Positions 1 to 63,018 of a stretch of DNA of 64,000 bases are shown in pieces. Origin of the DNA: Candidatus Nomurabacteria bacterium (lineage in GTDB: Bacteria; Patescibacteriota; Minisyncoccia; Phycocordibacterales; UBA5272); contig JBEIQD010000001.1 in the NCBI GenBank assembly GCA_040376695.1, forward strand, positions 145,437-209,436, in the 5' to 3' direction. How positions within the stretch are numbered: position 1 is the first letter of the stretch; every line of letters starts with the position of its first letter. Made by a program: the position numbers and the translations under genes. The notes beneath the pieces were generated by a model. That model was not told the DNA's origin, made no database searches, and saw nothing but the letters and a program-made list of their open reading frames with translations.

Positions 1-250
1 AAAAGGTAAGTAATGCACTTGATCTCACAAAAGTCATGACAGCAAAGAAAAGGAGTGGTAATGCTACAACATACACCGATTTCTGTACTCTCTTTCCAAA
101 TGTCTTAGATAGCCCCCACCCTAGAATCAAAATGAGCGCAGCGAACAAGAAGAAATTGATCCCGAGATTCTGCTCGTAAAACAGTACGTTATGAATGATT
201 CCAAGAACGGCAGCACCTCCCACTAAAAGAAATAAGTCGTTTGTTTTCAT
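1..250 (-). CDS. Hypothetical multi-TM membrane protein, N-terminal part (gene runs off window start)
   Basis: Manual translation of minus strand from ATG at 248-250: MKTNDLFLLVGGAAVLGIIHNVLFYEQNLGINFFLFAALILILGWGL... hydrophobic helices. Start 6 nt after stop of preceding 63-aa ORF (translational coupling). Open to the window edge. Confidence 0.4.
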   Translation of the reverse strand, partial: MKTNDLFLLVGGAAVLGIIHNVLFYEQNLGINFFLFAALILILGWGLSKTFGKRVQKSVYVVALPLLFFAVMTFVRSSALLTF

Positions 251-256
251 AGATAT

Positions 257-448
257 TTAAGCGGAGGGCTTTTCCATTAATTTATCCTCAATCTTTCTCA
301 AAGATACTTCTATATTTTCCAGTGCGTCCACCACTCGATTCATTTTCCAATACCAAGTAAACAATTCTCGAATAATAAAGAAAAGTAAGGTGCCTCCAAA
401 AAACAATACGAAATCAGATTCTTGTGCAAGTTTGTCAATTATTTCCAT
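257..448 (-). CDS. Small hypothetical protein with one predicted TM helix
   Basis: 63-aa ORF (FVLFFGGTLLFFIIRELFTWYW hydrophobic stretch). Tightly coupled to the downstream membrane-protein ORF. Confidence 0.4.
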   Translation of the reverse strand: MEIIDKLAQESDFVLFFGGTLLFFIIRELFTWYWKMNRVVDALENIEVSLRKIEDKLMEKPSA

Positions 449-566
449 ATTGATAATTATAGCTTATCTTGGGTGTGAGCTCCATAATTTCTTGAACTGC
501 ATACAGTTCGTTGAAATTAGCAGTACTTTTAGGTGACGAAGTTAGAACCAATTTATTTTTAACTAG

Positions 567-3500
567 TTACTCTTCCTCAAAGGGATAAACAAAGTTTTGT
601 TTATAAACATTTTGGTTTTTCTTTAATATATCAGCGTGGTCTGGCCGATGAATATCATCAAGATTCTCTGGCCAGTATCTCCGTTCTCCCCAACTCACCA
701 AAACAAAAGTCTTTCCTGTTTTTTTCTGAATCTTTTCTAAAAGATCTTTTCGTAGGTAGAGTAGATTTTCATGAGTGCCGTACTGATCACCGCTGTTTAT
801 AGGAATTGCCATAATCTCTCCTTCTTCATTAGATAAATTAAAAGATGATGTCTTAAAATGTAGCTTATAGCTTTTACCTATTTTTTTACTCGGGATATAC
901 ATGCCGACCGAGTCATCATCTTTTCCAAGATAGAAATAATCTTTTGTTGCAAACCATCTAGCAATGCGCTGTATACGCACCTTCTCATAAATAGGCTCTG
1001 TTTTAAAAAGTGGAGGTTCTTCAACTTCTTTCACAATATGATTCTCTTTCTCGGGAAGAAAAGCATACACTAAACGAACACCGTACCAGCTCTTTTCTTC
1101 TTTTGTAAGCTTTCTTTGTTTTTCTCCTCTCTTAATCTTTATCTCTAATACTGGATCTGGAGTACTTTTCTCTCTCCAAAAAACTTCCCCTGCAAAGAGA
1201 CTTCTTATTTCTGATAAAGATGGAAGACTGTTATTACCAGGATAATCCTTAGTTGAAAAAAACTCATCTACTTTCTTAATATCATTTGGTTCCACCAAAA
1301 CCCCATGTAACCAAGTCATGATTTTTCGACTATTCGTAGTATCTTTTTCTCCTATTGTTCCTTCTACTAAAACCCAAGGTCCTTTAACATCATTAATTGT
1401 TTCCACTTTAAGATAATGGCTTATATTTGGCGGTTCATTTTGGATCATCCATTTCTTAATTTCTTTTGGTCCCGTAGTGAGTATTTTTGAGTGTAGATTC
1501 TTGGATATAGAAGATTGTGGAAAACTAACATCCAAGTCTATTGATTCTTCTCTACCATCTTCATTTACCCACCACTTCTCAAGCTGCCCTTTATCAAGCC
1601 TTATACCCATGATTTCTCGATACGCAATAAGGGAATATTTTTCACCGTACCGTTCTATTTTTCCAACGTAACTGTGGTGTCGATCATACCTACTATCTCT
1701 CTCTATATATTTATCAATATCTCCAAATTTCTTTAAAGAGTAACCCAATTCATAGAGTCGCCACATTATATTTTCTTTAAGCTTAATATAGTTTTTGTCT
1801 CTATCATCATAAGCGCGACTACCCACTAAGTGTCTTAATGTATCTTTTTCAAATTCCCACCCCAGCGGGGCGTTCCCCTCGCGATATAGACCTTCATCTT
1901 TATCTTGACTTCGCCCCCAGCGACGAATACCACCATCCAAGTAAGGTGGTCTGATTCTTTTTATTTCTGAATCTGAAAATAAACTTTTATTATTATATAA
2001 ACCTACTTCAATAACGCCTCGAGCGTAGTCTCTAATAAAAACATTAGAGGAGCTTAGTTTTGCATGTTTTTTAAAAAAAAGAGCGTAGATATTTTTAGTG
2101 TGAGGATACAATGCTTTTGATATTAACTTTTTATCTAGATCGTTTAACGCCATTGCTATCCCGTAATCAACAGCCAATAATCTTTCCTGAATATAAGGAT
2201 CATTAACTTCAATAGCGTTCTCTAGAAACTCTATAAACTTTTCTGGATTAACTTTCCCGACGATATAAAGGCACCTCGTGGCTCTATTTCGTAGTAACTT
2301 GACGTTACTACTCAACACCCATTTCAAAACCTGCATTACACAAACTGCTTGCTCATCGCCCATTTGCGGAAGTTTTTGATTTTCAATCCAGGAAATTAGT
2401 TTATAAATACTGCCTGAACCATACTGCTTTCTAAGATACTCTGACCACAGCAAGTCTCTGCTTGTTAATGTGAGTCCATTTAAATACTTATTAAGTCGTT
2501 CTGCATTTAAAGGATGGAAAGGTTTAGTTGCCGTCGAGACAAAAAGATCAAGCAATTCTCTGTAAGAATTATCATACTTAAAAAGTGTTTTATTTATATA
2601 ATTAAGAATAGAACTTTTTATTTCCCTTTTATCATTTAAGAAATTCTCTGGTTTTCTCCAATATAAACTTTGAATAAAAGCAGATCTTATTTGTGGGTGG
2701 TATTTAAGCTCTTTAGGTAAGTAGTTAATCAAATCTTTTTCATGTAGAGACCTATTATTTTTTACGCTTTCAGGAAACTCAACCATCAAAGCTTCGACTA
2801 AATCTATATTTATTAAAATAGTACGCTCATCTTTAAATAAATCCCCCAAAGGAGTAGAGGCTTTTAGGCTCGATTTTACCTTTTTACTGTTAAAAAAATT
2901 TTTATCATAAAGTAAATTTCTTGCGATTATATGATCACTAAACTTGTGGAAAGAAAATTTTAAAACATCATAATACTTCTTTGCTTTATCATCCCAAGCA
3001 GCATCTCTAATTAGCACCCCTTCCTCTATTAGTATTTTCAATACTTTCAAACATGTTGTTAGGGTATATTTTCCTTCAGAAAGATCTCTAATGACTCCTA
3101 GGACTTCACTCTCTATAAGAAACCTCCTACCATTGCTTGCCATAAGTTTAGCTATCATTTTTACCAAACAATCATTTCCAGACTTATTCCAAATCCAAGA
3201 ATGTTTTATTAAAGCCTTGTACTTTGAAGAGTGTTTTTTAATTATCCATTCTTCTTTTGTAATATAAAAATCTTCTAGAATTTTTGTCATTCCAACTTGC
3301 CCTAAGGCAAGATCTCTAATACCTTTTGTAACTTTTGCTTTACCTCCTTTTATATCCTTTGCAGTTCTACAAAAGCAACTTAAAAATAAAGGGCTACTAA
3401 ATTCTGATATTAACAATGGAACCTGAGGAAGAGTGAGTCCATAGAAATTAAAAAAGGCGGTCATTGCTTCAAGTTCGTTATCTTGGAATCCTTGGTGATA

Positions 3501-4499
3501 TTCTGTTGTTATTTTTAATCTTTTAGGTAGATAGAGAAATTGAAAGGGAACTCTGCATGTCATAACTATGCCAACCCAGGGATATTTCTTGGCTTCTCTA
3601 ATTAAATATCGAACCCCCGCTTTCCAGCCTTTCCTGTCAGCTTCATTTATAGCATCAATAATTATCAAAGATCTTCTGTTTGCTTTTTGCCCTAGATCAT
3701 TTAACTCTTGTAAAATTCCATTTTTTGTTCCTTTTATAGAGGTAGCTTTAAAGACCGCTTCGATGGAATCGTTAATTTCTAACAACTTCTCTCCTAAAAC
3801 AATAATAGTTGGTGGAAGATTCTCATCTAAACGCTGCTTTGATATATCACAAACTAAATGAGTTTTGCCCATTCCTGCTTGACCTAATATAAGTAAAAAA
3901 GGATCATTCATAAGTTGAGCCTTATGACTTTTTGCAAAATAATCCAACTTGCGTATAGAGCTTTCAAATTCCCTTAAAGTACTTTCCAGGCTTTTCAGTT
4001 CTCGTAACTCTTCTGAAGAACTGTGCCCAAAATATTCTCTTCCTTCGACTTTTGCTTTTTCTCTTTGTGCATCATTTTCCTTACTTTCAAAATCCCACAC
4101 ATAGTGCTGAATTGGAGAAAAATATTTATATAATTTTTCTGAAGCTTGTATAACAGATTTTAAATTGAGTTCCTCAGCCTGATCTTGAGCAAATTTTTCC
4201 GCTATTTCTAGATAACTTTCTCCTAATTTTTGGATCTTTCTTAAATTCTTCCTTACTGTTGTATCTTTATACTTTAACGGATTTAAATATCCTAATCTTT
4301 TATGAGATTCTCGTAGGCTTTTCCTATAACCCTCGATCTCTTTGAAGACCTTTTCTGTTCTTCCTATACCGTCAAAAACATCTTTTATTGGCAGTTCAAC
4401 GTTAATATCGCTAGTGTACCTAGGTCCAGCTGCATCCTTGGCTTCTCTCCAGATTCTTTTTTGGTCTATTTGGATTTTGGGAGTTTTTTTTACGCTCAT
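567..4499 (-). CDS. Large STAND/NACHT-like P-loop NTPase (1310 aa), multidomain; candidate defence/signalling ATPase
   Basis: Walker A LILGQAGMGKTHLV (~aa 205). Walker B-like LIIIDAINEAD. Downstream GIVMTCR resembles the hhhTSR sensor-1 motif of NACHT/STAND ATPases. ~200-aa charged helical N-terminal region and ~900-aa C-terminal region without recognisable repeats. Markedly AT-rich codon usage relative to neighbouring core genes. Confidence 0.75.
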   Translation of the reverse strand: MSVKKTPKIQIDQKRIWREAKDAAGPRYTSDINVELPIKDVFDGIGRTEKVFKEIEGYRKSLRESHKRLGYLNPLKYKDTTVRKNLRKIQKLGESYLEIAEKFAQDQAEELNLKSVIQASEKLYKYFSPIQHYVWDFESKENDAQREKAKVEGREYFGHSSSEELRELKSLESTLREFESSIRKLDYFAKSHKAQLMNDPFLLILGQAGMGKTHLVCDISKQRLDENLPPTIIVLGEKLLEINDSIEAVFKATSIKGTKNGILQELNDLGQKANRRSLIIIDAINEADRKGWKAGVRYLIREAKKYPWVGIVMTCRVPFQFLYLPKRLKITTEYHQGFQDNELEAMTAFFNFYGLTLPQVPLLISEFSSPLFLSCFCRTAKDIKGGKAKVTKGIRDLALGQVGMTKILEDFYITKEEWIIKKHSSKYKALIKHSWIWNKSGNDCLVKMIAKLMASNGRRFLIESEVLGVIRDLSEGKYTLTTCLKVLKILIEEGVLIRDAAWDDKAKKYYDVLKFSFHKFSDHIIARNLLYDKNFFNSKKVKSSLKASTPLGDLFKDERTILINIDLVEALMVEFPESVKNNRSLHEKDLINYLPKELKYHPQIRSAFIQSLYWRKPENFLNDKREIKSSILNYINKTLFKYDNSYRELLDLFVSTATKPFHPLNAERLNKYLNGLTLTSRDLLWSEYLRKQYGSGSIYKLISWIENQKLPQMGDEQAVCVMQVLKWVLSSNVKLLRNRATRCLYIVGKVNPEKFIEFLENAIEVNDPYIQERLLAVDYGIAMALNDLDKKLISKALYPHTKNIYALFFKKHAKLSSSNVFIRDYARGVIEVGLYNNKSLFSDSEIKRIRPPYLDGGIRRWGRSQDKDEGLYREGNAPLGWEFEKDTLRHLVGSRAYDDRDKNYIKLKENIMWRLYELGYSLKKFGDIDKYIERDSRYDRHHSYVGKIERYGEKYSLIAYREIMGIRLDKGQLEKWWVNEDGREESIDLDVSFPQSSISKNLHSKILTTGPKEIKKWMIQNEPPNISHYLKVETINDVKGPWVLVEGTIGEKDTTNSRKIMTWLHGVLVEPNDIKKVDEFFSTKDYPGNNSLPSLSEIRSLFAGEVFWREKSTPDPVLEIKIKRGEKQRKLTKEEKSWYGVRLVYAFLPEKENHIVKEVEEPPLFKTEPIYEKVRIQRIARWFATKDYFYLGKDDDSVGMYIPSKKIGKSYKLHFKTSSFNLSNEEGEIMAIPINSGDQYGTHENLLYLRKDLLEKIQKKTGKTFVLVSWGERRYWPENLDDIHRPDHADILKKNQNVYKQNFVYPFEEE

Positions 4500-4641
4500 T
4501 AGTCAACAGTATACTCTTTTTGTCTACCTAACAAGATTATAAATCAAGAATCATATCCAGCGTTTCTGAGTTTTGTGAGTATAAGCATTTTTAACTCTAA
4601 CAAGTCATATTTCAGTGCCAGCAAGAACACCATTAACAAAC

Positions 4642-5049
4642 TCATTTCTTTCTATGCGGAAATTTTACTGTTGCAGCCAAATACAAAAGCATTGACGATA
4701 GTAGAATTACTGGCAACATCATGATTCCCCAAAAACCTACCGTTAAACCCATACGAAACAAACCAGCAACATTTACCGGGTTAAATGCCAAAATAAGGAT
4801 TACGGGGATAAACATTAAAATATTTACCCCGATAATTCCGTTTAGAACTTTTTCCATTCTCTCAGAAAAAGCAGGATCAACATATTCTATGTACAGGTAG
4901 CTGGCAATTAAAACAGTGATAGTGAGGCCCCACTTTAAAATAATATTATTAGCTCCACTTGTTTCCTTATCAAAAACAGCTTGCATGATTATAGGAAAGA
5001 ACAGTGAAAGACCTATAAGAAACTGCAGCCTACTTTCTAGTTTTTTCAT
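4642..5049 (-). CDS. Hypothetical 4-TM integral membrane protein (135 aa)
   Basis: Four hydrophobic segments (LIGLSLFFPIIMQAV, LTITVLIASYLYI, ILMFIPVILILAF, FWGIMMLPVILLSSMLLYLAA). Start codon 3 nt from the 3' end of tRNA-Gln. Directly upstream of the STAND NTPase on the same strand. Confidence 0.6.
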   Translation of the reverse strand: MKKLESRLQFLIGLSLFFPIIMQAVFDKETSGANNIILKWGLTITVLIASYLYIEYVDPAFSERMEKVLNGIIGVNILMFIPVILILAFNPVNVAGLFRMGLTVGFWGIMMLPVILLSSMLLYLAATVKFPHRKK

Positions 5050-5122: not shown

Positions 5123-5208
5123 TACTATTGTGCGATTTACTCGACACAAAATTGATTTTAAAACCTTCAAAATCAGTGCAAATATACTACCACATTTTGA
5201 CGACTCTA

Positions 5209-6864
5209 TCAAAGAGTGGCACGGACCAAACGTATTTGGTGAAAGGTATATTTTCCACCGAGCTCGTCAAAGACTGGAGTGAGTTTTGTGGTCTCCAAAG
5301 TCTTGAAAGCTTTCTTGATAGCGGTCACGTCTTTTTTCGGAGGTAACACCTTATCTAACACCACTTCTTCTTTCATTTCTACTAACTTCTCAATGTGTCC
5401 GATAATGGTGTCTACGGAGAGATTTCTTTGCTCGGCGATTTCAGCAAGTGTGAGTCCGATCTTTAACATCTCTTGCGTCACTGTATGTGTGAGCGTCTTT
5501 TCTTGAATCTCATCTGCTTCAGCATCACTTAATTCTACAAGTGTTCCCCCTTTCTCGGTGAGGAACTTTTCATGCAGCACTTTCAAATCATTTTCATTGT
5601 ATTTATCAAGCGCATATTCTGCCTGTTCACTCTTGTTACGGAACGTATAATCCGCTTCTCGAACCTCTTCTGAAATCTGAAGAGCTTGTGGATTGAACCC
5701 GACCAAGTGGAGCCCTTCCATGCTCTTTAATCGAGAAAGAGCAACATATCCCTGTCCTGAAGCAAACGCACGACTGAGGTCAATTTGAGCCCTATCAAGG
5801 GTCATTCCTTGGCTCTTGTGGACGGTGATAGCCCAGGCTAATTTAATAGGTAATTGGGATATCTCGGCTTTTACTTTTCCGTCTTCTTCCACGCGCCAGG
5901 TATCAGCTTTCATAACCACTCGTTTCCCTGTTTGAAGTGCGATCACAGGACTATTATCTTTCTCAAAATCAACCACAATTCCCATAGAACCATTCACATA
6001 CTTTCGCTCAGCATCGTTTTTGATACAAATTACTTTCGCTCCAATTTTAAGTTCCAATATTTCATCCGCCAAACAGTTGTTCTTAAGCGATGCAAGTACG
6101 GGACCTTTTCCTTTTGTTACCATGTCGAATCTCTTTACTTCCCCCTCAAGTGCGTCAAAGGCTTTCTTGTTAATCAAATCTACATTCTCATTGTGCGTGT
6201 AGAGTTTTATATGATCATCTGTATGCGGCGTGTTACTTGATTCTTTAAGGGTGAGATAGTGATCCTCTTCCACTTCACCAGAACGAATTGCATTTAAAAT
6301 ATTGGTGAGCGTATCATCTTCTTGTCGGAACTGTTCAGTTAAATAGCACACAACAGGCTTGGCTTCTTTCCACGCTTTTGACATGAATGCGAACACGTCT
6401 GTACTTTCGTATTCATTTCCATTTCGTACCACTGGTGGAAGCTGAAAGAAGTCTCCAGTGAACACAACTTGTAATCCACCGAACGGTTTATCGCTTCGAC
6501 GTAGATGTTTCCCTGCTTTGTCCAACATATCTACAAGCGAAGCGTGAAGCATAGAAATTTCATCAATGATAAGCACTTGAGTATCATTCCACCTCTTGTA
6601 TACATTTGCTTTCTCTTCTAATTCATCAAGATCATACGCTGTGAGCTTTTGTTTAATACCAAGACCACTCCACGCATGAATGGTTGTTCCACCGATATGG
6701 GTAGAGGCAATACCGGTTGAAGCGGTAACTGCGAATTTAATACCATGCTTACGCAGGTAGGTAATGTATTCACGGAGAGCGTAACTTTTACCAGCTCCCG
6801 CCGCACCAGTGAGAAATACCGTGTGTCCTAGTTTAAGAATATCGAGAGCGGTCTTCTGCGTCAT
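5209..6864 (-). CDS. Pif1/RecD-family ATP-dependent DNA helicase with C-terminal HTH
   Basis: Walker A FLTGAAGAGKSYAL. Motifs LIIDEISM and TGDFFQLPPV typical of the Pif1 (AAA_30) family. C-terminal helix-turn-helix-like tail. Confidence 0.85.
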   Translation of the reverse strand: MTQKTALDILKLGHTVFLTGAAGAGKSYALREYITYLRKHGIKFAVTASTGIASTHIGGTTIHAWSGLGIKQKLTAYDLDELEEKANVYKRWNDTQVLIIDEISMLHASLVDMLDKAGKHLRRSDKPFGGLQVVFTGDFFQLPPVVRNGNEYESTDVFAFMSKAWKEAKPVVCYLTEQFRQEDDTLTNILNAIRSGEVEEDHYLTLKESSNTPHTDDHIKLYTHNENVDLINKKAFDALEGEVKRFDMVTKGKGPVLASLKNNCLADEILELKIGAKVICIKNDAERKYVNGSMGIVVDFEKDNSPVIALQTGKRVVMKADTWRVEEDGKVKAEISQLPIKLAWAITVHKSQGMTLDRAQIDLSRAFASGQGYVALSRLKSMEGLHLVGFNPQALQISEEVREADYTFRNKSEQAEYALDKYNENDLKVLHEKFLTEKGGTLVELSDAEADEIQEKTLTHTVTQEMLKIGLTLAEIAEQRNLSVDTIIGHIEKLVEMKEEVVLDKVLPPKKDVTAIKKAFKTLETTKLTPVFDELGGKYTFHQIRLVRATL

Positions 6865-26942: not shown

Positions 26943-27311
26943 ATGGCCAAAGAACAGCCTGAACAACAGGTCGGTGAAGGAGTTGCAACACTCCAGATCA
27001 CCGAAAGTGCACTGCACGCATTTCTTCAAAGCAAAATCAAAAGCTCTTCGGGGCTGATGATTCTCGTGGACACACGTGATCAGCCGGTGCTTCTCAAGCA
27101 CAGCGACATCTCGGTGGTCCAGGTCAACTCTGCGTGGGTGGGTTTCACTCATGCGGGTGTGCGTTACCGTACGAAAGAAATTTCCCATCGCGACAATTTG
27201 ATTTCGTGGGCAAACAATGGAGGCAGCGAACCCTTCAGCCAGCACCGCGATTTCAAAAACGCAGTCGGCCCGCCGAACGTTTGCTTCGTGCGCATGAGCG
27301 GCGGGAATTAA
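26943..27311 (+). CDS. Hypothetical protein (122 aa) in a GC-enriched segment
   Basis: ORF with ~52% GC versus ~40% local background. Ends 20 nt before a perfect bidirectional terminator. The overlapping minus ORF (26760-27344) is Cys-rich junk. No family recognised. Confidence 0.4.
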   Translation: MAKEQPEQQVGEGVATLQITESALHAFLQSKIKSSSGLMILVDTRDQPVLLKHSDISVVQVNSAWVGFTHAGVRYRTKEISHRDNLISWANNGGSEPFSQHRDFKNAVGPPNVCFVRMSGGN

Positions 27312-27329
27312 TTTACCCACCTGCCCAAA

Positions 27330-27360
27330 ACAAAAGCCCCTCAATGAGGGGCTTTTTTAT
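27330..27360. terminator. Bidirectional terminator AAAAGCCCCTCAATGAGGGGCTTTTTT
   Basis: Seen directly. Shared by the convergent genes 26943-27311 (+) and 27373-27786 (-). Confidence 0.7.
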
Positions 27361-27372
27361 TTGCGCAATTGT

Positions 27373-27786
27373 TTATTTTGCTTTCTTGGGATCATTAAAT
27401 ACTAATCCGACCGCAGTAGTTTCTGCTGTGCAAACTTTGTCCAAAAGGCGGCTACCATTCCAGTAGTAATAGGTTGTTTTATCTCCGTCAACAACTTTTG
27501 CACCATGTGTAACCGTTACCTGCTCCAACTCCTCCTTTGGAATGAAAATAATTCCATTAAGTAAATGTTTTTCCGGATTAACACGAATAACACTTGTTTT
27601 AAGGTGAAAACAGTTGTAACCCTTGGGAGCAAGAACGATTGTCGCCTTTGCTCCCAGAGGCTTCATCAGCTTTAATATCACCTCTGAAACATGAACTAGG
27701 TGCTGTGTTTCTGCTTCAGCCCACATAATCTGGCGCAGCACTTTTTTGTTCGTGGCAACTCTCTTTGCACTCATAGGAATCTCCAA
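27373..27786 (-). CDS. Hypothetical protein (137 aa)
   Basis: ORF with normal local composition. Ends at the shared terminator. No confident domain assignment (possibly PUA/ASCH-like beta-barrel). Confidence 0.5.
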   Translation of the reverse strand: MEIPMSAKRVATNKKVLRQIMWAEAETQHLVHVSEVILKLMKPLGAKATIVLAPKGYNCFHLKTSVIRVNPEKHLLNGIIFIPKEELEQVTVTHGAKVVDGDKTTYYYWNGSRLLDKVCTAETTAVGLVFNDPKKAK

Positions 27787-36684: not shown

Positions 36685-39564
36685 TCAAATTACGATATTT
36701 ATGAGCTTGTTAGGCACAAAAATGATTTTCTTTGGGGTAGCTTCGCCTACATATTTCTGGAAGAAGTCAGTTTTCTTAACCTCGTCTAACACGTGTATCT
36801 CTGTCGTATCATGAGGAACTGTAAGGGTTCCTCGCAACTTACCGCCAATTTGAACCGCGATAGTGGCGCTCGCTTCACGGATGTAATTTTCATCATAGAC
36901 AGTCCAATCAGCTGCGTGGATCGAACCTTCTTCCCCTAGCTGGTTCCATAGCTCTTCTGTAATATGAGGTGCGAATGGAGCTAAAACCTTGAGGAACTCC
37001 GTGTACCAATACTGAGAAATTGAAGCTTCTTCATCGGCTTGATTAAGGCAAATCATCATCGCACTAATGGCGGTATTAAATTTGAAACCTTCAATATCTT
37101 CACCTACTTTTTTAATTGTTTTATGAAGCAATGACTTCATCTTATCTGAGTCAGCAACATCAGCAGATACTTTACCGGAGAGCTTCCATACCCGCTCTAA
37201 AAAGCGCTCAGTGCCTGCAATTCCTTTCGTATCCCAAGCAACTGTTTGCTCAAATGGACCCATAAACATTTCATACATACGAAGTGTGTCTGCTCCGTAT
37301 TGATTAACCACATCGTCTGGGTTAATAACGTTCCCTGCACGTTTACTCATTTTGCGTCCGTCTTCCGCAAGAATGAATCCGAGGAATTCAAGTCGTGAAA
37401 AAGGTTCATCGTTTGACACAACACCAATGTCATATAAAAACTTGTGCCAAAAACGAGCATAGATTAAATGGCGGGTTGCGTGGTCTCCTCCAACATAGAC
37501 ATCCACCGGCTGCCATTTCTTTTCAATCCCCGCATCAGTAAGAGCTTGAGAGTTATGCGGATCAGCGAAACGAAGATAGTACCATGATGAACCGGCCCAC
37601 TGCGGCATAGTGTTTGTTTCGCGAGTAAAGCGCTTTGCTTGTGGATGAGATGATTCGCAACTTACAAACTCCCCTTCTTCATTAAGATATCCCGTAATGT
37701 TCACCCAAGATTCTATAGCCGCAAGGGGGCTTTCTCCTGTTCCTGTCGGTTCATATTTTTCTACCTCAGGCAATCTAACTGGAAGCTCACTGTCAGCAAC
37801 AACATAGGCAACATGATTCTCATCAAATACAATTGGAAAAGGTTCACCCCAATATCTTTGTCGTGCGAACACCCAATCTTTCAAACGATATCGAGAGATA
37901 AGTTTTCCTCCGACAACTTCAGTGATTTTTTTACGTGCTTCTTCAGAAGAAACTCCGACATGACTTCCAGAATTAACGAGCACACCTTCCCCTGTGTACG
38001 CGACATCTTTACCCGCCTTAAGTCGAGCTAACCAAAGTGGAAGCTCTGAGTTCACCATTTTTCCTGGAACAAAATCAGATGCATCTACCCAAACAATCTC
38101 ATTTCCTTCATCTTCTGCGATTCCTACATTTGTTTCATCCTCCAGCTCAAAATAGAGAGCAGAGGCAATCGCTAGTCTATTTTCATCTTTATGCTTCGTA
38201 AAGTAACTTGTCTGCACTGGATTTCCAAGTGTTCGTTTATATACAACATTCACATATCCAGTTTCTTCTCGTAGTTCACGCTTTGCTGCTTCAACAAGAT
38301 CTTCTCCGTCATCAACACCCCCCATAACAACAGTGTCCCAGCCATGAGTTTCATTCCTTAAAATAAGATACTTTTTAGTGGCGGGATTATAGACAATAAC
38401 GTGAACGTTTCTTCGCTTCACTTCTCGCTTCCCTTCCTGGGGTGGATTAACTGTATCGACAATAGACGGACGAACAACTTCTTTAATTGGAAGATTGTAT
38501 GTCTGAGCAAATTCGAAATCACGTTCATCATGTGCTGGAACTGCCATAAGTGCACCTGTTCCAACTCCTCCCATCACATAATTGGCAATCCACACAGGAA
38601 TTTCTTCTTTCGTTGCTGGATTGATTGCATACACACCAGTAAAAATTCCTTTCTTCTCTTTATCAGCTCCATATCCAAGAGACTCTTGCTCATTTTGAAG
38701 CAAAGCAATAAAGCTAATAACTTCTGACGAGGCTTCCCATCCATTCTTAATCCATGTATTTGCAAGTTCAGCTGAAATAGCAACAAAGGTCGCGCCGTAG
38801 AGTGTATCTGGTCGAGTGGTAAACACTTTTTGAGATGGAGGGACACCCTTTCCTGCAGCTAATTCAAAATCAAACTCAGCCCCCTCACTTTTCCCAATCC
38901 AGTTCTTTTGTGCGAGCTTAACCCCTTCCGGCCATTCCAATGTATCCAAATCTGCAATCATGCGGTCTGCGTAATCAGTAATCTTAAGCACCCACTGACG
39001 AAGTGGTTTCTTTTCTACTTTGCTCCCGCAGCGTTCACAAGAGTCTCCTTCTAGATCTTCATTCGCAAGTCCAGTCTTGCATGATGGACACCAATTAATA
39101 GGTTCATTGCTTTCGTACGCGAGATCTTTCTTCCACATTTGTTTAAAAATCCACTGAGTCCATTTATAGAACTCTGGATCGGTTGTATTGATTTCTTTTG
39201 TCCAATCATAATTACATCCAATAATTGAAAGCTGCTCCTTAAAGCGAGCAATATTTTTCTCAACAGCAACTCGTGGATGAACTTTATGTTTAAGAGCAAA
39301 TTCCTCAGCAGGAAGACCAAAAGCATCCCATCCCATTGGGTGGAGTATTTCATAACCTGCCATTGTCTTCATTCGAGAATAAATATCAGTTGCGATATAT
39401 CCTTTAGGATGACCTACGTGAAGCCCTTCACCTGACGGGTATGGAAACATATCCAATACATACATTTTCTTTTTTGTGGTGGAAATATCAGTCTCATAGA
39501 GCTTTGTATCTGCCCACTTCTTCTGCCACTTAGATTCTATGTTTTTAGGATTATATGATTCCAT
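36685..39564 (-). CDS. leuS: Leucyl-tRNA synthetase with inserted NUDIX hydrolase domain
   Basis: HIGH (PYPSGEGLHVGHP), editing-domain TTRPDT, KMSKR. Between AHDERDFEFA and YRLKDW lies an extra ~140-aa segment with a complete Nudix box GGVDDGEDLVEAAKRELREETGY (GX5EX7REUXEEXGU). Confidence 0.9.
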   Translation of the reverse strand: MESYNPKNIESKWQKKWADTKLYETDISTTKKKMYVLDMFPYPSGEGLHVGHPKGYIATDIYSRMKTMAGYEILHPMGWDAFGLPAEEFALKHKVHPRVAVEKNIARFKEQLSIIGCNYDWTKEINTTDPEFYKWTQWIFKQMWKKDLAYESNEPINWCPSCKTGLANEDLEGDSCERCGSKVEKKPLRQWVLKITDYADRMIADLDTLEWPEGVKLAQKNWIGKSEGAEFDFELAAGKGVPPSQKVFTTRPDTLYGATFVAISAELANTWIKNGWEASSEVISFIALLQNEQESLGYGADKEKKGIFTGVYAINPATKEEIPVWIANYVMGGVGTGALMAVPAHDERDFEFAQTYNLPIKEVVRPSIVDTVNPPQEGKREVKRRNVHVIVYNPATKKYLILRNETHGWDTVVMGGVDDGEDLVEAAKRELREETGYVNVVYKRTLGNPVQTSYFTKHKDENRLAIASALYFELEDETNVGIAEDEGNEIVWVDASDFVPGKMVNSELPLWLARLKAGKDVAYTGEGVLVNSGSHVGVSSEEARKKITEVVGGKLISRYRLKDWVFARQRYWGEPFPIVFDENHVAYVVADSELPVRLPEVEKYEPTGTGESPLAAIESWVNITGYLNEEGEFVSCESSHPQAKRFTRETNTMPQWAGSSWYYLRFADPHNSQALTDAGIEKKWQPVDVYVGGDHATRHLIYARFWHKFLYDIGVVSNDEPFSRLEFLGFILAEDGRKMSKRAGNVINPDDVVNQYGADTLRMYEMFMGPFEQTVAWDTKGIAGTERFLERVWKLSGKVSADVADSDKMKSLLHKTIKKVGEDIEGFKFNTAISAMMICLNQADEEASISQYWYTEFLKVLAPFAPHITEELWNQLGEEGSIHAADWTVYDENYIREASATIAVQIGGKLRGTLTVPHDTTEIHVLDEVKKTDFFQKYVGEATPKKIIFVPNKLINIVI

Positions 39565-48071: not shown

Positions 48072-48638
48072 TTACACAAGCCTTTTCTCCGCAACACTCC
48101 AATCAATAGTATTCATAAACGCAGCAATATAATCAGCGCGTTTGAGTCCGTAATCAACCATAAACGCGTGTTCAAATACATCCATGACAAGTACAGGGAC
48201 CGCTCCTGCTAAATTCCCTTCATTGTGTTCATTTACCCATGTGTTGAAAACCATTTTCTTTACTGGATCATACGCAAGCACCACCCACCCAATACCACGC
48301 ATTGTTCCGATACCAATAAATTCCTTCTGCCAGTTTTCAAATGAACCCCACACGTACTCAATAACTTTCTGTAATTCAGAACCTGAAGTCATTGCTACTC
48401 CACCATTTTTCATGTTCTCAAAATAAAGTTCATGGAGACGCATTCCGTTCCATTCCCATCCAAAACGACGATGAAGTTCAGCATATTCAGGAGTTCCAAT
48501 TTCAAGTGTTTTAAACTTTTCAACAAGAGCGTTTGTATTCTTCACATACCCCTGGTAGAGAGTAAAGTGATTAGTAAGCAACACATCAGAAAATCCAGGA
48601 GTTCCAAGCAGGTGTGCAAAATCTTTTTGTTCGTACAT
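48072..48638 (-). CDS. sodA: Fe/Mn superoxide dismutase
   Basis: Fe/Mn-SOD metal-binding motifs (HHxxH-like N-terminus, DVFEHAF/DxWEHAYY equivalent). Confidence 0.9.
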   Translation of the reverse strand: MYEQKDFAHLLGTPGFSDVLLTNHFTLYQGYVKNTNALVEKFKTLEIGTPEYAELHRRFGWEWNGMRLHELYFENMKNGGVAMTSGSELQKVIEYVWGSFENWQKEFIGIGTMRGIGWVVLAYDPVKKMVFNTWVNEHNEGNLAGAVPVLVMDVFEHAFMVDYGLKRADYIAAFMNTIDWSVAEKRLV

Positions 48639-49894: not shown

Positions 49895-50016
49895 ACGAAT
49901 ACTCTATCACATCAAAAGAAAAAATCAGCTTGTCAAAAACAAGCAGACAAAATAAAAATGCTTCCAGATGTGCAATTGCACACATGGAAGCATTTAGGTT
50001 TCACCAGCACCGGTGT

Positions 50017-50460
50017 TCAGATGAGAACAGCGGCGCCTGGCGGCTCACCGAAGGAGGTTTCAGGCAAATGCGCACGGCCGGTGTAGTTCTGGTCGAAGAT
50101 GCCGGCAATCAGTGGCGGCGCCTTGATCTTGTCCACGGCTGGCCGCCACAACGCCGGGGTAATGCAGCTTGAGCCGCCCTGGCCCTTGCTGTCAGCACAT
50201 CCTGCGCCGATCAGTCGCACAGGCAGCATCTTGGAGATGCCCTGGCCCATGGGAACGAGCGCGAATGCCTTGCCTTCGGTCGCCGCGATGGCGCCAGAAA
50301 CCGGCTGCTGGTTGTTGACTTCTTTCACGCCGGCGATCTGGTCCTTGTTGGAGGCAGCGGCTGCGAGACCTGGCGGAGCCTGGCCCGTAGCAAAAGCACT
50401 CGTGGAAATGCCGACAGACAGCGTCATGCACAGCATGGCCGCAACCAAAGATTTCTTCAT
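50017..50460 (-). CDS. Secreted hypothetical protein (147 aa) encoded by a ~65% GC segment
   Basis: Signal peptide MKKSLVAAMLCMTLSVGISTSAFA. Ala/Gly/Pro-rich mature region. AAGGAG SD 7 nt upstream. Coding region far more GC-rich than flanks. Confidence 0.6.
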   Translation of the reverse strand: MKKSLVAAMLCMTLSVGISTSAFATGQAPPGLAAAASNKDQIAGVKEVNNQQPVSGAIAATEGKAFALVPMGQGISKMLPVRLIGAGCADSKGQGGSSCITPALWRPAVDKIKAPPLIAGIFDQNYTGRAHLPETSFGEPPGAAVLI

Positions 50461-50623
50461 GGCTTTCTCCTTATTCAAAGTTGATGAAATCGGATTTTGT
50501 ACAAAGCAATAAGAGGATCCGACACCCCCCTCATCCACCATAACTCTATCATTCCCCTCTAGAAAATAAAAGTGTTATACACACCTAACGGAGAGAGAAC
50601 TTTTTTGTTACACTACAGCACAC

Positions 50624-61612: not shown

Positions 61613-61883
61613 ACTGCATTCTTACAAACGGATATCTCACTACTTCTTTTCCATCGAGTGTAGCTTGCGCAATCCAAGAAACTAGTGAACGATTAAATTT
61701 TACTGCTGCAGCATTCTCATAGAGTGGAACATACTCAACGTGCCATTCATCGCTATCTGAATTAAGTGATATTCCTGTAACAAGATACTCTTTGTCTAGA
61801 TTTTTGTAATGCACATAAATTCCTCCTACTATTGGTGCATCACTTGGGATTTCAAAATATTCACTCATACTTTTATAGTGCAA
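61611..61883 (-). CDS. DUF1653-family small protein
   Basis: 90 aa. GIYVHYKN...EYVPLY pattern reminiscent of DUF1653. Overlaps parB by 11 nt. Confidence 0.5.
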   Translation of the reverse strand: MHYKSMSEYFEIPSDAPIVGGIYVHYKNLDKEYLVTGISLNSDSDEWHVEYVPLYENAAAVKFNRSLVSWIAQATLDGKEVVRYPFVRMQ

Positions 61884-63018
61884 AATTTTTCACATTATAC
61901 AGATCATCATTCTGTTCCTCTTCTTTTACTTCTTGAATTGACCTATCGTCCACAAGCGTATTTGTTGGCTCATAGATAGTATCTTCAATATCTTCTTCAA
62001 TTGCTTCGCTCGATACCTGTGTAGCGGCGCTATCAACTAGTTCACGGACTTCTTCCTGCGTTGCCTGCGGTTGTAGATGAGTTAATTCTTCCTCGGTTAC
62101 GGGGCGAATATGGCGAGGACTTCCTGATTGCTCAGCAAGCGTCTCCATATCTTCTTCTTTCAATCTATCAAACATTCCCTTGTGAGTTTTTGCTTCCCCT
62201 GCTTTTCGTATAGCGATGGAAAGAGCAAGTAGTTCTTCATGAGAAAAGTAATCAATCCAAATACGTCCTCCGCGTTCACGTGGTTCAATTTGAACACGAG
62301 TACCAAGCGTCTCCGCTAGCTTCTCTTCCATATCCACAACATCAGGCGTCATAAACAAATCCTTTTTACGAACCTTTTCAAATGCAATACGTCGCGCAAT
62401 CTGTTCTGCTTCACGAACGGTCATCTTTCGCACCATCATTTCTTTAAACAATGTCATCTGCTCCTGTGGCCTATCAATGAGCATAAGGAGTGGTCGAGTG
62501 TGGCCTTCACTTATCTGTCCTTTTGAAAGCGCATCCAAAATATCCTGAGGAAGCATAAGAATACGCACCGTGTTTGATACGTATTCACGACTCTTGCCCA
62601 TTTTCTTTCCCACCTCTGTCCAATTTAATTTAAATTCATCAGCAAGACGCTGGAATGATTGTGCACGCTCAACAGCATTCAAATCTTCACGCTGAAGGTT
62701 TTCAATGATGGCGAGTTCTAATTTCGCACGACTATCATCTCCTGTGCGAACAACAACTGGCACTTGTGTGACTCCTGCCATTTTTGAAGCACGAAGACGT
62801 CGTTCCCCAGCAATGAGTTCATACTCTACCTTTACTCCACCATCTTCTAGACTTGTTTCCATTCTAGAAACAACAAGCGGCTGAAGTACTCCATACTGAC
62901 GAATACTATCTGAGAGTTCTTTTAGTCTATCTGCATCAAATTCCCGTCGTGGTTGATACGGGTTTGGTACAATCTTATCTGTTTCTATCCAAAAAATTGA
63001 TGTCTCTACGTGTGCCAT
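61873..63018 (-). CDS. parB: ParB/Spo0J chromosome partitioning protein with extended acidic C-terminus
   Basis: ParB box GERRLRA. N-terminal ParB/Srx domain, HTH. 381 aa. Confidence 0.85.
   Translation of the reverse strand: MAHVETSIFWIETDKIVPNPYQPRREFDADRLKELSDSIRQYGVLQPLVVSRMETSLEDGGVKVEYELIAGERRLRASKMAGVTQVPVVVRTGDDSRAKLELAIIENLQREDLNAVERAQSFQRLADEFKLNWTEVGKKMGKSREYVSNTVRILMLPQDILDALSKGQISEGHTRPLLMLIDRPQEQMTLFKEMMVRKMTVREAEQIARRIAFEKVRKKDLFMTPDVVDMEEKLAETLGTRVQIEPRERGGRIWIDYFSHEELLALSIAIRKAGEAKTHKGMFDRLKEEDMETLAEQSGSPRHIRPVTEEELTHLQPQATQEEVRELVDSAATQVSSEAIEEDIEDTIYEPTNTLVDDRSIQEVKEEEQNDDLYNVKNFAL

Follow-up and report, generated by a model that had tools for sequence, protein, structure and literature searches.

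What raises the guanine-cytosine (GC) content of one gene far above that of its AT-rich surroundings, and what might keep it there, is the question posed by a locus in a 64,000-nucleotide stretch of DNA from a Candidatus Nomurabacteria bacterium (assembly GCA_040376695.1, contig JBEIQD010000001.1, positions 145,437 to 209,436 of the forward strand; this whole stretch is called the window here). The gene encodes a small secreted protein and, with its regulatory parts, forms a compact cassette. Those parts can be described with high confidence: the cassette has its own promoter, leader, Shine-Dalgarno sequence, open reading frame (ORF) and tandem terminators, sits at a fixed locus, gives a secreted, fast-evolving product, and shows a lineage-wide, mostly synonymous GC excess. 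For the locus as a whole, the odds seem to us slightly in favour of an accessory cassette that is real and inherited with the chromosome of a Patescibacteria lineage (Paceibacterota/Minisyncoccota type), with its GC content held up by a weak force.

Composition of the gene

An earlier note, made by a model from the sequence alone, had described a compositionally extreme ORF of 444 bp and 147 aa, and this was confirmed as a minus-strand coding sequence (CDS) at 50017..50460 (444 bp with the stop codon counted; secreted Ala/Gly/Pro-rich product). The GC content was 61.9% for the CDS and 40.7% for the window, with a local maximum of 0.655 over the gene in 200-bp windows, the previously stated roughly 65% being too high for the CDS; of the two sequence strings quoted with it, the second was exact and the first was off by one base. 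GC content at the three codon positions was 0.60/0.53/0.72, and third-position GC content (GC3) in the neighbouring genes was 0.30–0.36. Among the 55 ORFs of the window, the GC3 of 0.72 was the single outlier (runner-up, 0.46), and the Ala+Gly+Pro fraction of the product was 0.36, compared with at most 0.23 for every other ORF. When the whole window was divided into 160 bins of 400 bp, bin 50001–50400 (0.635 GC) was the sole bin above 0.482.

Recoding the same protein with the codon usage of the window gave 48.7% GC, so amino-acid composition accounts for about one third of the GC excess and synonymous choice for the remainder. A check of codon usage, as the note had recommended, showed strongly atypical usage, with 101 GC-ending codons observed against 42.1 expected from window usage (z = 11). 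G-ending and C-ending codons were both enriched, and the preferred codons (GGC 0.82, CTG 0.45, ACC 0.57, plus GCC and TCC) were the rarest in the genome. The compositional break had been called precise to the coding region; this nearly held, with the border of the GC rise lying almost at the CDS, and failed in the strict sense, with roughly 30 nt of 5'-terminal leader sequence (50511–50540) and about 20 nt past the stop codon also GC-rich.

Distribution and synteny

Homologues were searched for in a collection of 5.8 billion proteins, giving nine, and 1.84 billion representative proteins were screened with a profile, giving 3 further true homologues, with 7 true family clusters, all of the same clade. 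A suggested likeness to periplasmic proteins of high-GC Proteobacteria was not borne out, since the profile search returned the clade-restricted family only, and the homology search for a donor lineage, run as the note had advised, yielded no homologue from a high-GC organism. The source contigs came from five NCBI metagenome-assembled genomes (MAGs) and from ENA, JGI and Logan assemblies, covering many samples. One locus-bearing genome, nzgw467, is a groundwater Patescibacteria MAG (PMC12455944), and a related DUF4446 protein carries the label Candidatus Paceibacterota (now Minisyncoccota at NCBI). A scan of genome contigs returned only the nzgw467 locus, already in the set; a metagenome scan with a protein pattern found nothing, and DNA and protein searches of phage and plasmid collections gave no match to the gene.

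The gene and its GC excess were found at the same locus in the window and in L001, L003, L005, L007, L013, L014, L010, L011, L015 and L018, with a gene GC content of 55–63% and a GC3 of 0.47–0.72, compared with a flank GC3 of 0.21–0.39, at all 11 distinct loci. In every homologue with a readable contig the order was fixed, with a divergent DUF4446-infB-rbfA block on one side and genes for cysteine desulfurase, iron superoxide dismutase (Fe-SOD) and ClpB on the other. Flanking proteins were 93–99% identical in sister genomes, and the cysteine desulfurase of distant assemblies was 65–69% identical. Three sub-clades carry the cassette: A, to which the window belongs; B (L011, L015, L018); and C (L010). 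Between sub-clades, cysteine desulfurase was 65–69% and DUF4446 54–57% identical, and synonymous sites of the flanks were saturated (synonymous difference, pS, 0.64–0.76).

Orthologues of similar GC content in sister genomes are part of what the earlier note had named as the sign of a native gene, and they bear directly on the two origins that it had offered, recent acquisition and chimeric contamination; syntenic orthologues with an equal GC excess in at least 11 independent assemblies contradict both. Recent horizontal acquisition into this genome, which the strongly atypical GC content and codon usage would suggest, is highly improbable given same-locus orthologues in sister genomes whose synonymous divergence (dS, 0.40–0.65) is like that of the flanks; no donor was found, and no integrase, transposase, mobility gene or tRNA adjoins the GC-rich gene. 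An assembly chimera or contaminant insert would account for the sharp compositional borders, and can be dismissed almost entirely: the same join recurs in assemblies that were made independently, from many samples and by various pipelines, its borders are the promoter/leader and terminators conserved across clades, and a protein on record from a separate Logan assembly (P0001) is 100% identical to that of the window. A foreign origin is thus possible only as a much older event.

Cassette architecture

Upstream of the gene, an extended −10 box TGATAGAGT (50543..50551, minus strand) was invariant in 11/11 aligned loci, and its position and consensus sequence suggest a promoter. Only three exact copies of TGATAGAGT occur in the 64 kb, at the GC-rich gene, at cysteine desulfurase (49901–49909) and at tRNA-Gln (5203–5211). 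The copies on either side of the cassette form a 9-bp direct repeat, and a reading of this repeat as a target-site duplication was rejected, since the 9-mer is also the organism's consensus −10 box.

Transcription would start near 50536, giving a 5' leader of about 75 nt (50461..50536, minus strand) with an invariant core GTGAGGGrTGTCGGATCCTC...AATCCGATTG (core blocks 50513–50524 and 50488–50496) and a conserved ribosome-binding site AAGGAG, found, as previously proposed, at 50467–50472 on the minus strand, 6 nt ahead of the ATG. Alignment of the intergenic regions showed 40 invariant leader columns across clades with synonymously saturated flanking genes. The leader motif was present once per locus in the window and the other loci, solely upstream of the GC-rich gene, was mutated where the gene had collapsed (L026) and was missing at an empty site (L028); a metagenome scan with it returned 5 chance matches in unrelated contexts. 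As judged from sequence comparison, the leader is tied to the GC-rich gene, remaining intact with it and mutating with its collapse. Folding of the leader predicted a weak hairpin without covariation. A riboswitch or pseudoknot was rejected, since the invariant sequence gives no covariation and the hairpin is weak, as was an attenuator, for which a terminator-like hairpin was flagged on evidence too weak for a claim.

Downstream, a short hairpin lies directly past the stop codon, and an intrinsic terminator at 49946..49995 (minus strand; 20-nt arms 49956–49975 and 49976–49995, 90% complementary, followed by a T-run) was kept in all loci, its palindrome being unique. A second terminator-like hairpin, GCTTGTTTTTGACAAGC with a T-run, was found at 49918..49944 on the minus strand. 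The two terminators abut in the window; in sister loci they are separated by an ORF of 70–106 aa with its own ribosome-binding site and terminator. This small ORF (MQSLRLTKVAVFIKKLFGSLPA...) was present in L001 (6445–6823 region), L003, L005, L007, L014, L015 and L017, and absent from the window (49918–49995), L010, L011 and L018, and it had no Pfam or PADLOC match. A toxin/immunity pair formed with it was considered unlikely, since the window, L010, L011 and L018 keep the gene without the small ORF. The last 33 nt of the CDS and about 10 nt past the stop codon were identical between the window and the distant L010.

Encoded protein

The Sec signal peptide noticed earlier was recognised by inspection from its n-, h- and c-regions and AxA site, and covers residues 1–24 (MKKSLVAAMLCMTLSVGISTSAFA; 50389..50460, minus strand), with cleavage predicted before TG. 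The MKK n-region, the hydrophobic core and the AxA-type site (AFA|TG in the window) were kept, on inspection, in all 12 homologues despite sequence variation. A motif Q-A-P-P-G (residues 27–31; 50368..50382, minus strand) follows 2–3 residues past the predicted cleavage site, and a C-terminal motif G-E-P-P-G, then A-A-V-L-I, occupies residues 138–147 (50020..50049, minus strand); QAPPG and GEPPG were each invariant in 12/12 proteins. Invariant residues were M1-K-K, L5, Q27-A-P-P-G31, A34 and G138-E-P-P-G142, with G63-K64 and a WRP...KAPP block near-invariant, so that fixed parts are limited to the two ends (xxQAPPG, LGEPPGAAVLI) and two short internal motifs. Conservation in both motifs extends to the nucleotides: the codons CCG and GGT of QAPPG and GGT GAG of GEPPG were invariant at synonymous positions in 11/11 loci, GGC AAG codons were likewise frozen in all clades, and the string CCGCCAGG is common to QAPPG and the C-terminal motif as a direct repeat.

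The mature part is about 120 aa long and rich in Ala, Gly, Pro and Ser, with Arg at 3 of the 147 residues and Lys retained. Prediction with AlphaFold2 (12-sequence alignment) gave a pLDDT of 45.7 and no secondary structure, and the mature protein is probably disordered on this model. Profile searches of Pfam, NCBIfam, PHROGs, PADLOC and the PDB gave no usable match; the WGxxGxxG family (NCBIfam NF041742) scored 13.2 bits against a curated cut-off of 35, in the signal-peptide region only. A lipobox L-[AS]-[GA]-C was not conserved (the context of Cys11 is non-canonical, with V or I in L011, L015 and L018), and a sorting signal of LPXTG or PEP-CTERM type was not recognised, with just 5 residues (AAVLI) past GEPPG and an LPET-like string in the window that is unconserved (ASKT in L001 and L007). 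The protein would probably act extracellularly, on the cell surface or in contact with a host, and its fixed termini could serve processing, anchoring or partner binding.

Coding status and fast, mosaic evolution

In the six closest genomes, flanking proteins were 93–99% identical, with a nonsynonymous divergence (dN) of 0.006–0.06, a dS of 0.3–0.9 and a dN/dS of 0.02–0.07. For the GC-rich gene in the same genomes, identity was 58–74%, dN 0.19–0.30, dS 0.40–0.65 and dN/dS 0.38–0.68 (about 0.45), placing its dN about 10 times that of its neighbours. Constraint varied along the protein, from a dN/dS of 0.31 in the signal peptide (0.25–0.31 across the signal and QAPPG segments) to 0.8–0.97 in the central parts; positive selection was rejected, with dN/dS above 1 in no segment. 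The window allele is a mosaic, nearest to L001 in its N-terminal part (0.92) and to L003 in its C-terminal part (0.98), and the PHI recombination test was significant for the gene (p = 0.0005) and equally so for the flanking cysteine desulfurase, SOD and IF2 genes. The aligned sequences indicate that the middle of the protein is changing by substitutions, in-frame indels and mosaic recombination. As a fast-evolving exported protein, it is an obvious candidate for host contact in ultra-small bacteria.

In AT-rich genomes, islands of high GC content often turn out to be structured RNAs, and the window contains a 137-aa antisense ORF, both of which would fit a block that is mainly a structured non-coding RNA or an antisense gene, with the sense ORF incidental. 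This is very improbable, and an antisense gene in particular was rejected: the sense frame was the sole frame open in 11/11 orthologues, with its indels in frame, antisense frames were broken in several orthologues, and the signal and motif segments had a dN/dS of less than 1. A specific RNA structure was likewise rejected, since the fold z-score was −0.5 for the CDS alone (−4.35 with the terminator included), the mean z-score against synonymous shuffles was −0.3 across 11 orthologues, and Rfam gave no match at gathering or permissive thresholds.

Patchy presence and collapse of the cassette

A search with DUF4446 returned about 140 clusters, of which about 80, at 60–84% identity to the window copy, lie between clades A and B. 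In L028 (GCA_040384045.1; DUF4446 and cysteine desulfurase 76% and IF2 86% identical to those of the window), the only intermediate locus that was read, cysteine desulfurase and DUF4446 were adjacent, about 115 bp separating them, and no remnant of a leader or terminator was present. Collapsed copies were found in L026 (176–397) and L027 (579–800), where a deletion starts just past CCACCA in the QAPP codons and ends 7 nt beyond CCGCCA, the counterpart in the GEPPG motif; the shifted frame runs on into the terminator, and invariant leader positions and the ribosome-binding site of the small ORF have decayed. The window Fe-SOD gene (48072–48638) was 88–92% identical to those of clade B (L015 8088–8654, L018 7791–8357; pS about 0.5), compared with 68% (pS about 0.7) for the adjacent cysteine desulfurase in the same pair of clades, which points to lateral exchange at the locus; the SOD of L028 was 69% identical. 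Together, the empty site, the collapsed copies and the SOD exchange indicate either one old gain with several losses or lateral spread among related lineages.

Age and possible maintenance of the high GC content

Two further sources of the high GC content were rejected. Translational optimisation would require the preferred codons to be shared with a putative highly expressed reference set (ATP synthase, AhpC, SOD, ClpB, IF2; GC3 0.327), and this set avoids GGC, CTG, ACC, GCC and TCC. Repeat expansion was rejected since no tandem repeats were found. For a diversity-generating retroelement target or cassette-based antigenic variation, extra copies would be expected; no second copy, fragment or silent cassette of the gene was detected within the 64-kb window, nor any other GC peak in 400-bp bins.

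Between clades, pS of the GC-rich gene was 0.56–0.78, with a mismatch of 0.50–0.62 at shared 4-fold sites. GC content at 4-fold sites (GC4) was 0.68 in clade A, 0.71 in clade C and 0.47–0.52 in clade B, where GC3 was 0.47–0.57. Decay was modelled with a simple F81 process with flank composition as target, giving the present GC3 of 0.69–0.72 only from an ancestral GC3 of 0.95–1.0; a start at 0.90 led to 0.65. Third-position singletons comprised 17 changes from strong (G or C) to weak (A or T) and 9 in the opposite direction (stationarity, p = 0.33; pure decay, p = 0.10; subject to a parsimony drop-out bias). From the values at each locus, the logit offset of gene GC3 from flank GC3 was calculated at about 0.9–2.0, a size matching ordinary codon-bias selection or biased gene conversion.

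On these results the GC content of the cassette would be held up by a force that favours GC weakly but persistently and acts at the nucleic-acid level, being neither translational optimisation nor selection for a specific RNA fold. Active maintenance of this kind is favoured here over slow decay, with a confidence that we would put no higher than even. A fuller version is tentative: GC would be held 20 points above an AT-rich genome by a force on the nucleic acid (either selection for mRNA or DNA properties or conversion that is biased locally), the disordered Ala/Gly/Pro-rich protein would be partly a by-product, and the frozen XPPG motifs could bracket a diversifying host-interface protein as programmed translation-pause sites or as recognition sites.

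What is truly odd about the locus is that rare GC-ending codons have persisted. This would have another cause if the gene were an old import from an extremely GC-rich, unsampled donor, placed behind a native promoter, spread by homologous recombination and still ameliorating with no maintaining force. Such an import would fit the patchy distribution and the empty site of L028, the SOD exchange between clades A and B, a between-clade synonymous divergence somewhat below that of the flanks, the near-identity of leader and 3' end across clades, the lower GC3 of clade B (0.47–0.57) and a decay model that fits with an ancestral GC3 of at least 0.95. It would, however, require a near-maximal starting GC3 that had hardly decayed by the time of the last common ancestor of the cassette, in which native AT-rich regulatory parts were already in place; no donor homologue was found in 1.84 billion representative proteins, the singleton polarity was nearer stationarity, and scarce Arg (3/147) with retained Lys is unlike proteins of very GC-rich genomes. 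With evidence on both sides, an old import is considered unlikely, if still a serious competitor.

Recombination-driven GC-biased gene conversion, in which the hypervariable cassette is a hot spot for exchange between alleles and its GC content is lifted by a bias in mismatch repair, would fit the mosaic alleles, the significant PHI test and the enrichment of both G- and C-ending codons, which points to composition and not to tRNA matching. Recombining bacterial genes also tend to have a higher GC3 (Lassalle et al. 2015, PMC4450053). Against this, the cysteine desulfurase, SOD and IF2 genes give recombination signals of equal significance and have a GC3 of about 0.30–0.35, and it is at the CDS borders that the rise in GC content stops. 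The excess itself, +40 points of GC3, is to our knowledge far above any effect reported for bacteria. As the sole cause, conversion bias is therefore improbable.

Several observations weigh against the preferred reading of an old, inherited cassette under a weak GC-favouring force. Pure decay from a GC3 of 0.95–1.0 reproduces present values at the observed divergence, and the polarity test rests on just 22–26 events. The AT-rich flanking genes also recombine, so biased gene conversion alone fails to explain a GC rise confined to the gene. Protein-collection searches detected no family gene in the roughly 80 intermediate DUF4446 lineages, and L028, nearer to the window than clade B, has an empty site; patchy distribution and SOD exchange would be as compatible with a younger cassette that has spread laterally as with repeated loss. 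The disorder of the product is predicted from a low-confidence model of only 12 sequences.

Other features of the window

A second, milder case of raised GC content was found around the stretch 27000–27350, in an ORF at 26943–27311 (plus strand, 122 aa; GC 0.53, GC3 0.60, coding-like position pattern) with no signal peptide and no Pfam match; its 8 homologues are limited to the same MAG clade (64–73% identity), it too is fast-evolving, and a bidirectional terminator lies beside it at 27327–27384. GC-raised orphan genes may thus be recurrent in the lineage.

Next to the cassette, the cysteine desulfurase gene has a TGATAGAGT box 6 nt ahead of its ATG and no Shine-Dalgarno sequence (49895–49909; all loci), an arrangement that makes a leaderless mRNA probable, and DUF4446 has a conserved TGnTACACT box 9 nt ahead of its ATG. 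At about 50.5 kb, where the cassette lies, the prevailing gene orientation turns from minus to plus and the signs of both GC skew and AT skew are reversed, and a ParB gene (61873–63018, minus strand) is found 11 kb away; the pattern resembles the strand switch of a replication origin. A replication origin at the locus was rejected, with a single DnaA-box-like site (50575–50583), no cluster and no canonical parS.

Elsewhere in the window, the leucyl-tRNA synthetase gene (36685–39564, minus strand, 959 aa) encodes a NUDIX hydrolase domain (residues 383–505, E = 8e-15) inserted just past the editing domain, an unusual fusion. An ORF at 567–4499 (minus strand, 1310 aa) with no Pfam match, in the lowest-GC part of the window (1–5000, 0.31–0.36), may encode a large lineage-specific protein.

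Significance and comparison with known systems

A sharp single-gene GC spike need not mean recent transfer or contamination, and comparison with sister genomes settles the point quickly. The locus also defines a family of small secreted proteins confined to one clade of ultra-small bacteria that probably depend on a host. With numerous alleles, some copies intact and others decaying, its roughly 440 bp could serve as a natural test for telling apart selection, biased gene conversion and slow decay of synonymous GC.

In the model of Lawrence and Ochman, atypical composition is said to mark horizontal transfer and to be followed by amelioration. The gene resembles transferred genes in its GC content and codon usage, far from those of the host, and in its accessory nature, with an empty site and loss. 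It differs in that the anomaly is syntenic across three sub-clades and has outlasted at least about 0.5 mismatches per 4-fold site, with no donor, mobility genes, tRNA or att-like junction, and with regulatory parts of native type.

Hypervariable surface-antigen loci with elevated GC content are known from AT-rich bacteria, such as the Borrelia vlsE/vls cassettes and the MgPa repeats of Mycoplasma genitalium. Like these, the gene is exported, rapidly diversifying and mosaic, with a GC content well above that of its AT-rich genome; unlike them, it is single-copy, with no silent or partial copies in 64 kb, no tandem repeats and a dN/dS of at most 1. Gram-positive-type bacteria also have small secreted envelope proteins of low complexity, rich in Ala, Pro and Gly, among them wall-spanning regions and Ala-Pro-rich antigens. 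The Sec signal, the composition and the probable lack of fixed structure are shared with these proteins, but similarity to described families and an anchor of LPXTG type, lipobox type or other known type are absent here.

XPPX motifs reportedly cause ribosome pausing that depends on EF-P (Peil et al. 2013). The two invariant XPPG motifs (APPG, EPPG), with Pro and Gly codons that are also synonymously fixed, recall these, and by analogy could be pause sites; this is a lead only, and they could equally be structural or recognition sites.

With the genes described for GC-biased gene conversion (PMC4450053), the locus shares a higher GC3 together with signals of recombination, but here the flanks recombine without a GC rise, and the effect is much larger and bounded by the CDS.

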